From: Escherichia coli
GTDB taxonomy: Bacteria > Pseudomonadota > Gammaproteobacteria > Enterobacterales > Enterobacteriaceae
Reading direction: 5' to 3' (one strand)
NCBI RefSeq assembly: GCF_003334405.1
Contig: NZ_QOWM01000008.1
DNA: 64,000 nucleotides
Shown: positions 34,112 through 55,555 of the stretch, in pieces
Layout: each line of letters starts with the position of its first letter
Numbering within the stretch: the first letter of the stretch is position 1
Notes under the pieces: model-generated
What the model was told of the DNA's origin: nothing
What the model saw: the letters and a program-made list of their open reading frames with translations, nothing else
The model's database searches: none
Translations under genes and position numbers: made by a program

Positions 34112-34211
34112 CTGCATAAAAAAATAGAGTCTGTCGACATCCGCCAGACTCTACAGTACACACAGCAGTGCATCCGCGTCTTAAATCCGGCATTGTCTCC
34201 TCTGCGCCGGT
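34112..34211 (-). ncRNA. mcaS: McaS (IsrA) small regulatory RNA
   Basis: Minus strand reads ACCGGCGCAGAGGAGACAAUGCCGGAUUUAAGACGCGGAUGCACUGCUGUGUGUACUGUAGAGUCUGGCGGAUGUCGACAGACUCUAUUUUUUUAUGCAG, matching my recollection of McaS, with a terminal hairpin and U-run. Confidence 0.7.
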
Positions 34212-37588: not shown

Positions 37589-37710
37589 GCAGGTGAATGC
37601 AACGTCAAGCGATGGGCGTTGCGCTCCATATTGTCTTACTTCCTTTTTTGAATTACTGCATAGCACAATTGATTCGTACGACGCCGACTTTGATGAGTCG
37701 GCTTTTTTTT
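37589..37710 (+). ncRNA. fnrS: FnrS small RNA
   Basis: Sequence from GCAGGUGAAUGCAACGUCAAGCGAUGGGCG to the terminator hairpin GCCGACUUUGAUGAGUCGGC plus U8, matching recalled FnrS. Confidence 0.75.
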
Positions 37711-50555: not shown

Positions 50556-51110
50556 TTAACTATCTAATATTGTGCTAAATCTTTTTATAACCATCAAGAA
50601 TGTTACTACGGTAAAAAAGAAGGATGAGTATGCTAAATAACTGATTATGTAAGCAGGGGTTGCGAAATACCATTTTTTTAATTCACTTGGGGTTTCTGGG
50701 AGAAAATATATTGCAACCGAAAAAATAACTAACGCTACAGATGTTAATATAGCATAAGAAACATTGTGACATAATTGCTCATATACGGTTTTATTATTAT
50801 TTAAAATTATTAGATTTGAACGTGGTTTGTTGTTTTCCTCAATGTCTGAAATTTTAAATACAGTTTTTTGTTTTTGATCGTAGATCATAATAACCGCGCT
50901 CATTAACAGTGCGGTAGTAATTGCTCCAAAGTTAACAAAAACAGATGCGATAGAGGTTTTCATTATCCCATAGGTAAAACATATGATTAATGATAATGTA
51001 AGAGGAATAATGAAGTGTATTGCGATGTCTTCGAGTAAAATATTTCCGCGTTGATCCGACATTGTTGTGTAATGTTTTTTTATTACACTCATTACGTTAA
51101 TCTTGTTCAT
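50556..51110 (-). CDS. Four-helix integral membrane protein (184 aa), downstream gene of an uncharacterised two-gene cassette
   Basis: Four hydrophobic segments of about 20 residues; start ATG overlaps the upstream gene stop (ATGA); AT-rich. Confidence 0.55.
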   Translation of the reverse strand: MNKINVMSVIKKHYTTMSDQRGNILLEDIAIHFIIPLTLSLIICFTYGIMKTSIASVFVNFGAITTALLMSAVIMIYDQKQKTVFKISDIEENNKPRSNLIILNNNKTVYEQLCHNVSYAILTSVALVIFSVAIYFLPETPSELKKWYFATPAYIISYLAYSSFFFTVVTFLMVIKRFSTILDS

Positions 51111-52039
51111 ATTTTTAATCCCCCATTACCACTATGTAACTCACTTAGTATATCATTCGCAATGATTTTAACAGTGTCATGAAGTGCTTTAAGATCGGGG
51201 ATTCCTGTAGATGCGTTTATGTTTAAGTCGTTATCATCTAATTCGGCAGAAATTCCTTTTCTTAAGATGGTGTCGTAATTAAAAATGACTGTTCTATTGC
51301 CTAATTGTAAACTAACTTTTATTGCGTCACACTTATCTTCAATTATTTCTATTATATTTCCTAGTTTTTTGTCTTTTAAGTCTTTAAAACTACCAAATAC
51401 GCCTTGATTTGCTTTTATTACCAAATCGGTTTTGATGTTTGTTTTGTTATTTCCGAATGAATCCGTGATGTCCTTTGGTGCTTTGTAACCTTGGGCTTTT
51501 ATTTGTTTTAATTCTGAATCAAGGATGTGTTGGGGGATTTTTTTGTGGCAAAGAGGATTGATTCTCGCTTCAAGTTTATATTTTGTTTTCAAGTGGTCTA
51601 GTAATGCATCAGAGAGTGTGCTGCGAGCAGAAATATTGTCATTAGCGTGAAATGCTATAATCCCTTCTTCTAAATTGTCTGGCAAAAATATTAAAATGTA
51701 ACGCTGTTTGAGAGTTACATCGTTGATAGTTGTTGTATAACGTATTTTAGTAAGTTTATCGTCTTTTATTTCACTGCTCTCACCATATTTCCCAACCTTT
51801 ACATATCCATATATTACTTGGTTTTGAGCATCAAAGGTGAGTGATGTGTGTTGTTCAAGAGAAACCTTTGTTTTCGAGAGACCAAATTCAATAGGTGTGT
51901 TTTTATAGCTATTAAAATACTCAACAAATAATTCATATGCTGTTTTTTTATCGCTTAAACCTAGGTTGTTTAGTCTTTTGCTGGTTCGGCTGCCCTTGTG
52001 GGTTAACACACGGAATGAATAGAAGTTAACGCTGTGCAT
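51107..52039 (-). CDS. Uncharacterised soluble Lys/Asn-rich protein (310 aa), upstream gene of the two-gene cassette
   Basis: No transmembrane segment or nucleotide-binding motif seen; AT-rich codon usage unlike flanking genes; coupled to the membrane gene. Confidence 0.55.
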   Translation of the reverse strand: MHSVNFYSFRVLTHKGSRTSKRLNNLGLSDKKTAYELFVEYFNSYKNTPIEFGLSKTKVSLEQHTSLTFDAQNQVIYGYVKVGKYGESSEIKDDKLTKIRYTTTINDVTLKQRYILIFLPDNLEEGIIAFHANDNISARSTLSDALLDHLKTKYKLEARINPLCHKKIPQHILDSELKQIKAQGYKAPKDITDSFGNNKTNIKTDLVIKANQGVFGSFKDLKDKKLGNIIEIIEDKCDAIKVSLQLGNRTVIFNYDTILRKGISAELDDNDLNINASTGIPDLKALHDTVKIIANDILSELHSGNGGLKI

Positions 52040-52406
52040 GAAAAGTCCTTTTGAACATATAGGAATATATTAGAGCATGAATGTGTGCAATGCATAAAAG
52101 AAAAAGCTACCGCAAGGCGACTCCACCCACAGATAGCTCTTAATTGATTGTTTGTAAAAAATAATACATTAATTATCTTCTGTGTAAAGAGGGAAACAGC
52201 CTTAGGGTAAGGGACACGAGTTGGGGGGATTGGTGAAATTTGCGTTGAGGATAAAACGATTTGCGGGAAAAGGATAGTTAAGTAGAATTGCTGCGGGTGC
52301 TTGAGGCTGTCTGCCTCGGGCATGAACACCAAAGGCAGATAGAGAAAAGCCCCAGTTAACATTACGCGTCCGGCAAGACGCTTAACATTAATCTGAGGCC
52401 ACATCT

Positions 52407-52655
52407 ATGCTTTGCATACGTAGATTAGCCTCTTACCGACCAAAAGGTCAAGGAGAAGCAGGCTATGAAGCAGCAAAAGGCGATGTTAATCACCCTGATC
52501 GTCATCTGTTTAACCGTTATAGTGACGGTACTGGTAACGAGGAAAGACCTCTGCGAGGTACGAATCCGAACCGACCAGACGGAGGTCGCTGTCTTCACAG
52601 CTTACGAACTTGGGGAGTAAGAGGACCAGCGGGGAGAAATCCCCGCAACCTCTGA
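52407..52655 (+). CDS. mok: mok-like overlapping reading frame (start uncertain)
   Basis: 82-codon ORF in another frame that fully overlaps hok, as in hok/mok/sok loci. Confidence 0.4.
   Translation: MLCIRRLASYRPKGQGEAGYEAAKGDVNHPDRHLFNRYSDGTGNEERPLRGTNPNRPDGGRCLHSLRTWGVRGPAGRNPRNL
52465..52620 (+). CDS. hok: Hok-family type I toxin (51 aa)
   Basis: Hand-translated MKQQKAMLITLIVICLTVIVTVLVTRKDLCEVRIRTDQTEVAVFTAYELGE, near-identical to recalled HokD/RelF; AAGGAG 9 nt upstream. Confidence 0.8.
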   Translation: MKQQKAMLITLIVICLTVIVTVLVTRKDLCEVRIRTDQTEVAVFTAYELGE

Positions 52656-53083
52656 TGTATTATGCATCCTCAACGCAGCCACAGTTAACCTGATTGGCGG
52701 GTTTATTTCATCTGTAAATATTTTTATAAAAATAATGCCCACGCACAGCATAAAACAAAAAGTATTACAGATAAAAAAGGAACGTAATGTGCAGATTTGT
52801 TGTTTTCCATATTTACTCACCTTAATATGATTAATCCTGATAGGGTTGTTATTTCAGCGGTTTTCAAATGAGATATTATGGTGATCTGACAAATTTGCAT
52901 AACATTAAAATTTAATTTGTTTAACCGCTTTTAATAATAAGCGTTGTTTGTATCCCAGCAATCTGTTGTTTGGTTTTTATTCCATTAAGGTGGGGGCTTT
53001 ACACTGGAACCAGTTTATTTATACTTTATACGTCAGCCTGAACAACTGGCATCTGCTGCACTGCGCCATCGAGAGATTGAGAA

Positions 53084-54966: not shown

Positions 54967-55555
54967 GCTGGTTTATTGTATGCCAAATGATTATTAAAAA
55001 GGTTGTGTTAATAACAAAATCCGAAATAATATGCCTGCATATTTTTATCTTGCTTATATTCTGCATATTGTGCATAGCAGGCTCATCCCTGCAATCAAAA
55101 CTGTATGATGAGTATTTTTTGTTTTCCTTTTTTCCAGTCATCTGATGATGACCTGCTTCTTTTTAATCCGGATCGACATCAGTTTTTTAAGATAATTCCT
55201 GCGAGTTATATGCATAAATGCCACAAACTCCGCATTTTATGTGGTTGGGAGTTGCCGGGCGCGCAGTGAGTTTGCTAAGAAAACTCCTGCATGGTGAATC
55301 CCCCTGTGCGGTGGGGTGATACCATTAACCTTTTCTGTCGCCGACAGGTATCACGAACATTTTGTTCACCGGGAGGCACCCGGCACCATGTACTTCAATA
55401 GATTCTCTCCACATTATGGATATTCTTTCAGAATATCCCACGCAGACTTTGTGTAAATGTTAACAAATGTGCGTTTTATTTGATCTGATTCGCTGTTTGA
55501 GCGTCCAAAACAACGGTATATATAATCCTTTACTATATGACATATGTGAGGAAAA

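Follow-up and report, generated by a model that had tools for sequence, protein, structure and literature searches.

The locus at positions 52180-52700 of the window (the whole stretch of E. coli DNA analysed here, 64,000 nucleotides long) is, we are confident, an intact type I toxin-antitoxin module, hok/mok/sok, which belongs to the HokD/HokW lineage and is carried as cargo by a Rac-like prophage. Modules of the hok/sok kind consist of a small membrane-killing peptide restrained by an antisense RNA. The lineage to which this locus belongs has been characterised and catalogued previously, and the toxin peptide is present in public catalogues and is thus already known. What the locus offers is an intact representative of the HokD lineage, mapped in full, K-12 hokD itself being a stump; its coordinates can be used for correct annotation, and its importance beyond annotation is small. 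A sequence-only reading had already proposed a hok/mok/sok locus at this place within the prophage, and our analysis bears this out: all of the defining elements are present and in register with those of characterised relatives, and the module is complete and apparently functional.

The locus lies between a group of replication genes (ydaU/ydaV, DUF1627 and DUF977) and the DUF1367/DUF1364/DUF1133(Q) genes of the prophage. An identical 651-bp copy is found in E. coli strain 64.1, where the gene order runs recET, racR, ydaS/T/U/V, DUF1627 and DUF977, then the hok locus, then DUF1367, DUF1364, DUF1133(Q) and the lysis genes. Ten complete E. coli genomes carry the identical 651-bp locus, and related loci are widespread, occurring in 4,729 of the 5,426 complete E. 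coli genomes as well as in 604 plasmids and 110 phage records. At the identical locus PGAP annotates only the toxin, leaving mok and sok unmarked.

The toxin is encoded by a 51-codon frame preceded by a good Shine-Dalgarno sequence, as had been noticed from the sequence:

52465..52620, plus strand: hok toxin gene, 51 aa (MKQQKAMLITLIVICLTVIVTVLVTRKDLCEVRIRTDQTEVAVFTAYELGE), with a single hydrophobic helix, Cys30 and Tyr47

52450-52455, plus strand: Shine-Dalgarno of hok, AAGGAG, 9 nt upstream of its ATG; overlaps the sok -35 of the opposite strand

52603..52606, plus strand: UACG motif at Tyr47-Glu48 (UAC-GAA), a candidate TadA A-to-I site (Tyr to Cys), read from sequence only

The peptide spans the entire Pfam model PF01848 (HOK_GEF; model positions 1-42 of 42, E 5.9e-21) and matches PHROG 251, 'MokW-like host killing' (3.9e-30), while a 19-residue hydropathy peak of 3.07 marks an N-terminal transmembrane helix. 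It scores below the cut-offs of the two NCBIfam Hok models NF007279 (43.7 bits vs 73) and NF007290 (HokA; 40 vs 89), which were built on other Hok subfamilies. The identical protein is RefSeq WP_021554378.1, named 'Hok/Gef family protein' by PGAP, and the exact peptide appears as entry 775 in the supplementary alignment of a 2025-26 Hok diversity survey. The residues M1, C, T, L, C, E and E are reported to be conserved in >80% of Hok peptides, and all are kept here (M1, C15, T17, L29, C30, E31 and E40). The HokD/HokW subclade signature MKQQKAMLI...TRKDLCEVRIRT is likewise present in the protein alignment. At the amino acid level the toxin shares 90% identity with K-12 HokD, 88% with the Hok encoded by phage Rac 442/2 and 84% with HokW, but just 43% with R1 Hok. 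The earlier description of the toxin as 'near-canonical' is therefore loose, the toxin being of the HokD/HokW type. Disabling hok mutations, named beforehand as evidence that would count against the locus, are absent: the reading frame is full-length and retains the conserved residues. The UACG motif is the context described for TadA-dependent Tyr-to-Cys recoding in Hok family mRNAs, for which conservation of the motif has been reported. Simple folding gave no tRNA-like loop around the UACG at Tyr47, and the site is partly paired in all of the predicted structures.

Overlapping hok completely, as also first suggested from the sequence, is a mok frame with its own Shine-Dalgarno sequence:

52407..52655, plus strand: mok reading frame, 82 codons, in the +1 frame relative to hok, which it contains completely

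52395..52398, plus strand: Shine-Dalgarno of mok, GAGG, 8 nt upstream of its ATG; sequestered by ucb in the full-length fold

This frame opens 58 nt upstream of the hok start, matches PHROG 37205 (E 1.8e-21) and has a start codon that aligns with the mok starts of family loci. Its length is atypical. In the family loci mok has 67-71 codons and ends level with the hok stop or 4-7 nt short of it, whereas here it is 14 codons longer and continues for 35 nt beyond that stop, TGG standing in place of the usual TGA; the new stop is the TGA at 52653-52655. The usual TGA overlaps the Pro-Glu codons of hok, and the C-terminus of Hok reads ELGE here as opposed to EPEE in HokD. None of the other 36 loci in our alignment has the mok extension.

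The elements that are expected to govern translation of the hok mRNA could all be placed by comparison with known hok/sok loci, a mapping which the sequence-only reading had suggested as a check:

52261..52288, plus strand: putative hok/mok promoter, read from the sequence, with -35 TTGCGG (52261-66), a 16-nt spacer and -10 TAGAAT (52283-88)

52295..52306, plus strand: tac (GGGUGCUUGAGG), at the 5' end of the hok mRNA; pairs with fbi (full-length) or ucb (shortened)

52307..52342, plus strand: 5' hairpin beside tac, from the MFE fold; 96.5% paired in 37 loci, with 4 pairs changed on both sides

52345..52353, plus strand: ucb, the mok anti-SD (AAAAGCCCC); pairs with the mok SD (full-length) or tac (shortened)

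52428..52432, plus strand: dcb, GCCUC, inside the conserved UAGCCUCUUACC; partner of the mok SD once the mRNA has been shortened

52620..52653, plus strand: 3' stem-loop, outer AGAGG/CCUCU and inner GCGGGGA/UCCCCGC

52668..52680, plus strand: fbi, fold-back inhibition element (CCUCAACGCAGCC); pairs with tac

52687..52712, plus strand: terminator-like hairpin (to 52703) and T-rich tail; Rac 442/2 and K-12 Qin have a stronger terminator at the aligned position

The putative hok promoter is weak (8/12 consensus matches). The mRNA probably starts at ~52295, 6 nt downstream of the -10 hexamer, TAGAAT, and conservation with phage 933W begins ~57 nt upstream of this +1. At the other end, the primary transcript probably stops at the terminator-like hairpin, and the 3' stem-loop at 52620-52653 is expected, by analogy with R1, to be the protective end of the 3'-processed mRNA; the protective role of this structure comes from R1 mutants of the last stem-loop (PMC9841398). 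The predicted 396-nt mRNA (52295-52690) folds with an energy of -147.9 kcal/mol (z = -7.2 vs shuffles) and in this fold tac pairs with fbi and ucb with the mok SD. RNAs ending at 52650-52658, from which fbi has been removed, instead fold with tac paired to ucb and the mok SD to dcb, the latter pairing forming the Sok-target hairpin at 52395-52432. These are the two states of the R1 switch, in which tac/fbi and ucb/SD pair in the full-length hok mRNA and tac/ucb and SD/dcb in the truncated one (PMC9841398). The definitions of ucb and dcb follow the same source, which places them at 52345-52353 and 52428-52432; assignment of ucb/dcb to a long-range GCCUCU / GGAGGU helix called by RNAalifold was accordingly rejected. 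The tac-fbi helix is predicted to contain ten pairs, one G·G mismatch and one bulge.

The leader is also recognised by Rfam. The model RF01794 ('sok') matches 52295-52470 with 105.2 bits (gathering score 59, E 7.7e-23). We rejected a reading of this match as the antisense RNA itself: its strand is the one that encodes hok, and the last positions of the model fall on the hok AUG. The match therefore delimits the mRNA leader, with the sok gene inside it on the other strand.

A Sok RNA had been anticipated on the minus strand near the mok start, at about 52380-52450, and its promoter had been left unplaced. Alignment to known loci, which had likewise been proposed, now places both:

52345..52415, minus strand: predicted Sok RNA of ~71 nt, in which an unpaired 5' tail of 15 nt (GCAAAGCAUAGAUGU) leads into a long hairpin, followed by a UUUU(CUCU) tract; ends inferred

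52451->52422, minus strand: predicted sok promoter, -35 TTGACC (52451->52446), 18-nt spacer, -10 TAATCT (52427->52422)

In a three-way alignment, the sokW gene of phage 933W, annotated as a 71-nt minus-strand misc_RNA, transfers to 52345-52415 of the window. The predicted RNA folds at -28.6 kcal/mol (z -4.6) and is complementary to the SD and start codon of mok. Its promoter is conserved in all 37 family loci, where the -35 always retains TTG and the -10 always TA...T, at fixed spacing; the -10 hexamer is TAATCT here and TAACCT in Sp5/933W. The homologous hexamer is the one altered by the 'pro-less' sokW primers of Takada et al., 2021, with loss of antitoxin activity (PMC8621323). The expectation of an antisense RNA thus stands in silico, and the proposed interval takes in the promoter together with the RNA's 5' half, but the predicted molecule extends beyond it, from 52415 to ~52345. 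A consensus promoter scan missed both the hok and the sok promoter, each of which matches at 8/12 positions and falls below the threshold. The promoters that the scan did call, at 52382-52411 on the plus strand and 52688-52659 on the minus strand, lack support from homologues and we take them to be chance matches.

For comparison across the family, 44 loci were recovered by a pattern scan in which each species was represented by a single genome; they come from Escherichia, Citrobacter, Klebsiella, Kluyvera, Pseudocitrobacter, Franconibacter, Atlantibacter, Pantoea, Serratia and others. Of these, 37 complete mRNAs, spread over many Enterobacterales, were aligned. The loci L021, L041 and L048, which lie too near a contig end or have a disrupted hok, were omitted from the alignment, and a match in Macrococcus (L026) was a chance hit to the pattern, with no hok. 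In the 37 loci, 92% of the cells of the named full-length structure are paired, compared with 39-50% when the partners are slid against each other, and none of 500 shuffles reached the observed percentage paired or the covariation score. RNAalifold independently recovered the helix between the 5' and 3' ends and the 5' hairpin. Within tac-fbi, the column pair 3/431 covaries, being UA in 20 loci and CG in 17, and both the 5' hairpin and the ucb-SD stem contain additional pairs in which the two partners have changed. The helices of the open form (tac-ucb 99% paired, SD-dcb 96%) are almost invariant. The switch helices are 94-99% paired yet mostly invariant, and the alignment therefore speaks for their conservation more than for covariation. 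Members of the HokD/HokW clade, including this locus, have in addition a 16-19-nt GC hairpin (CGCGUCCGGCAAGACGC) inserted in the ucb-SD stem (alignment A2, columns 87-105), which also lengthens the Sok terminator.

Several characterised systems can be set beside the locus. The paradigm, hok/sok (parB) of plasmid R1, shares all of the named elements, the switch between full-length and truncated mRNA (~400 and ~360 nt) and a Sok antisense to the translation initiation region of mok. It differs in its distant toxin, its longer 5' hairpin and the absence of the GC hairpin from the ucb-SD stem, and it is plasmid-borne, with a demonstrated role in post-segregational killing. Much closer is hokW/mokW/sokW of Stx2 phage 933W and the Sakai prophage Sp5 (AF125520), which is 89% identical in DNA over the mRNA and has in common with our locus the layout of tac, ucb, SD, dcb and fbi, the position of the sok promoter, a prophage location and the clade-specific GC hairpin that doubles as the Sok terminator. 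Here, however, mok is an 82-codon frame in the +1 register, whereas in 933W a 1-nt deletion puts the upstream ATG in frame with hok, so that 'mokW' is Hok extended at its N-terminus. The two also differ at the C-terminus of the toxin (ELGE here, ESEK in HokW) and in genomic position, hokW lying near the right end of its phage genome and the present locus between the replication and Q-type antiterminator genes.

Closer still in DNA (92.8% identity) is the locus of 'Escherichia phage Rac' from E. coli 442/2 (MN652886), in which both mok and hok are annotated, with mok in the +1 frame, and which occupies the same position, after ydaV, ydaW and lygF and before DUF1367, ybcO and Q. There mok has 68 codons and ends 7 nt before the hok stop, the tac-fbi helix is perfect, a rem gene lies downstream, and other small ORFs take the place of the two-gene cassette upstream. 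The closest named toxin is that of hokD (relF) in the Qin cryptic prophage of K-12, with five substitutions. Its coding region, 3' stem-loop and fbi are homologous to ours and its prophage neighbourhood is similar, but homology starts only at the hok SD, and relBE replaces tac, ucb, the mok start and sok. Relative to K-12 hokD, the window locus is the complete, ancestral-type version.

The anatomy of the locus and its potential for pairing are laid out above; the dynamics of the switch we infer from R1 and Sp5. The weak promoter would give rise to a stable mRNA of ~400 nt starting at ~52295. In the full-length form, tac would be paired with fbi and ucb would hide the mok SD, such that mok and hok remain untranslated and binding of Sok is prevented. 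Slow 3' trimming as far as the stem-loop at 52620-52653 would strip off fbi, upon which tac would move to ucb and the mok SD to dcb, and the resulting hairpin at 52395-52432 would expose the mok start region. In a quiescent prophage, constitutive but unstable Sok (52415->~52345) would pair with this region, stopping translation of mok and of hok coupled to it and marking the duplex for RNase III. Should Sok drop, upon loss of the element, a block of transcription or prophage induction, mok and hok would be translated and the 51-aa Hok peptide would enter the inner membrane, leaving the cell depolarised or lysed; full toxicity may also require TadA editing of Tyr47 (UACG) to Cys. We would further speculate that, since hok is co-oriented with the early rightward operon, read-through after induction hits the sok promoter and leads to loss of Sok.

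In Sp5, HokW is toxic and arrests growth (Takada et al., 2021; PMC8621323). SokW counters HokW, partly via RNase III and Hfq, and vanishes after mitomycin C in a RecA-dependent manner; HokW is found at the inner membrane before endolysin appears, and deletion of hokW-sokW halves phage release (PMC8621323). By analogy, the most likely role of the present locus is to aid in killing the host and releasing phage once the prophage is induced, and/or to stabilise the prophage. It is accordingly a candidate for asking whether prophage hok modules aid lysis after induction, as hokW does.

A different role is suggested by the neighbouring genes, which together with hok had been described as a compact island of toxic or defence-type cargo:

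50556-52039, minus strand: two-gene cassette encoding proteins of 310 aa and 184 aa

The cassette is indeed divergent from hok, as had been claimed. Neither protein has a match in Pfam, PADLOC, NCBIfam or PDB sequences, and profile and BLAST comparisons found no sequence similarity to lambda RexA and RexB. The sole lead comes from fold comparison, which gives the 310-aa protein a RexA-like fold. Its 184-aa partner has four hydrophobic segments, as RexB does, and the gene order is that of rexA-rexB. The pair is thus a candidate Rex-like exclusion system, and it is a more interesting item than the hok locus itself. The cassette is present in 15 of the 5,426 E. coli genomes, always with the hok locus adjacent, and it stands beside hok, again divergent, in a Citrobacter prophage. 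In two Serratia contexts it occurs without hok, and it is therefore an independent cargo unit. As a candidate Rex-like system the cassette lends partial support to the island description.

Conceivably, hok/sok and the Rex-like cassette may act as a single membrane-depolarising defence island, and the main role of the module would then be abortive-infection defence alongside its neighbour rather than prophage maintenance or assistance with lysis. Protection of cells against T4 by hok/sok on a high-copy plasmid has been reported, and the RexA-like fold of the 310-aa neighbour, its four-helix membrane partner and the recurrence of the divergent arrangement in E. coli and the Citrobacter prophage fit with such a role. 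Against this, hok genes show no enrichment in the vicinity of defence systems (12% observed, compared with a random expectation of 9.4%), the Serratia cassettes do without hok and PADLOC gives no match for the cassette. Moreover, the sole direct data for a prophage hok, those on hokW, indicate assistance with lysis and release. On balance we regard a primarily defensive role as unlikely, and prefer aid to host killing and phage release, and/or prophage stabilisation.

The allele in the window has two features that might be taken as signs of decay. One is the loss of the usual mok stop; the other is in fbi, where G52678 stands opposite G52297 of tac as a mismatch, the other 36 loci having C at that site. 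The mismatch lowers the predicted stability of the tac-fbi duplex from -21.1 kcal/mol with C to -17.0 kcal/mol, a cost of ~4 kcal/mol. We thus considered whether this could be a silent or decaying chromosomal copy, with the elements present and killing or regulation gone, as has been suggested for several chromosomal hok loci. There are precedents: K-12 hokD is a truncated remnant without leader or sok, and chromosomal hokA, hokB and hokC have been reported to lack post-segregational killing and to be unresponsive to rifampicin. In the present locus, however, no element is missing or interrupted, and the full-length ORF has all of its conserved residues. The switch is intact in silico, tac-fbi remaining stronger than tac-ucb (-10.7 kcal/mol) with pair probabilities of at least 0.97. 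Furthermore, the 101-bp segment containing both the mok extension and the G·G mismatch is at least 99% identical in ~127 complete E. coli genomes, so that we are dealing with an established allele and not a lesion. Finally, 42 of the 45 peptides tested in the published Hok survey were toxic, HokD among them. Decay is, on this evidence, very improbable, and we continue to regard the module as intact.

An established allele might nevertheless behave differently. The stop codon of the extended mok falls on the final base of the 3' stem-loop, the site where 3' processing is expected to halt. It could be imagined that ribosomes translating mok on the processed mRNA unwind the protective hairpin, or run off an end that lacks a stop codon, and that this, together with the weakened tac-fbi pairing, makes for a differently tuned switch. 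We consider this a long shot; if true, it would couple the output of Hok to mRNA decay or tmRNA rescue in a manner not described for R1.

That the ORF and the overlapping frame are chance features of prophage DNA, a reading with nothing in its favour apart from the small size of the ORF, can be dismissed in view of the Pfam E-value of 6e-21, the Rfam score of 105 bits, the thousands of homologous loci and an RNA structure backed by covariation. The window also carries RalA, FnrS and McaS.

The match to RF01794, the Rfam family named 'sok antitoxin', covers 52295-52470 on the hok-coding strand, and the final positions of the model fall on the hok AUG. As built, RF01794 is therefore a model of the sense leader of the hok mRNA. 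A sok gene called automatically from this family would be placed on the wrong strand.

Two features of the mRNA itself set the window locus apart from its relatives. The first lies in mok, the reading frame that overlaps hok: the usual stop, TGA, is TGG here, and mok is consequently 14 codons longer (52612-52655), with its end at the final base of the 3′ stem-loop. Among 37 family loci this extension is unique to the window locus, and the segment encoding it is at least 99% identical in approximately 127 E. coli genomes. The second is a single G·G mismatch (52297 vs 52678) in the helix formed by tac and fbi, the pairing 5′ and 3′ elements of the hok mRNA, at a position which is G-C in all 36 of the other loci compared; the associated penalty is about 4 kcal/mol. 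Within the hok coding sequence, the Tyr47 codon UAC and the G that follows it (52603-52606) form a TadA recognition motif, which in Hok family mRNAs reportedly permits Tyr-to-Cys recoding, and this is thus a candidate editing site as judged from the sequence. Simple folds gave no obvious tRNA-like loop around the motif.

In K-12 MG1655, homology between hokD (L053, 1645119-1645274 plus flanks) and the window locus begins only at the hok SD, and relBE stands in place of the leader, the mok start and sok, which leaves K-12 with the toxin ORF and fbi but with the rest of the switch gone. In phage 933W (L002, 1672-1884), a deletion of 1 nt relative to the window brings the upstream ATG into the hok frame, such that 'MokW' is Hok with an N-terminal extension rather than a separate overlapping frame. 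Both in-frame and +1-frame versions of the upstream frame are found across the hok family.

The top two promoter-like sites of the region are:

52161-52188, minus strand, 10/12, facing the Rex-like two-gene cassette
52998-53025, plus strand, 10/12, upstream of the DUF1367 gene

The interval between hok and DUF1367 (52700-53083) is AT-rich and contains no convincing ORF; in Rac 442/2 and in K-12 Qin, the equivalent place is occupied by rem.

Four further RNAs in the window exceed their Rfam gathering scores:

34116-34211, McaS/IsrA
37589-37706, FnrS
42016-42194, RalA, antitoxin of RalR (Rac prophage)
55259-55445, STnc100, approximately 2.6 kb downstream of hok, past the Q-like gene

Elsewhere in the Enterobacterales, several genomes carry tandem hok pairs on the same strand, roughly 460-770 bp apart; these genomes belong to Pseudocitrobacter, Pantoea, Atlantibacter and Franconibacter, with one Enterobacteriaceae MAG among them (L012, L014, L016, L022, L023, L029). 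Short contigs labelled as non-enterobacterial (L008, L013, L015, L034) also carry hok loci, either encoding the R1 Hok peptide or showing the same pattern, and most likely entered those assemblies as contaminating plasmid or enterobacterial DNA. They include:

L008, Streptomyces morookaense contig164, 4.9 kb, hok locus
L013, Oscillibacter MAG, 5 kb, hok locus
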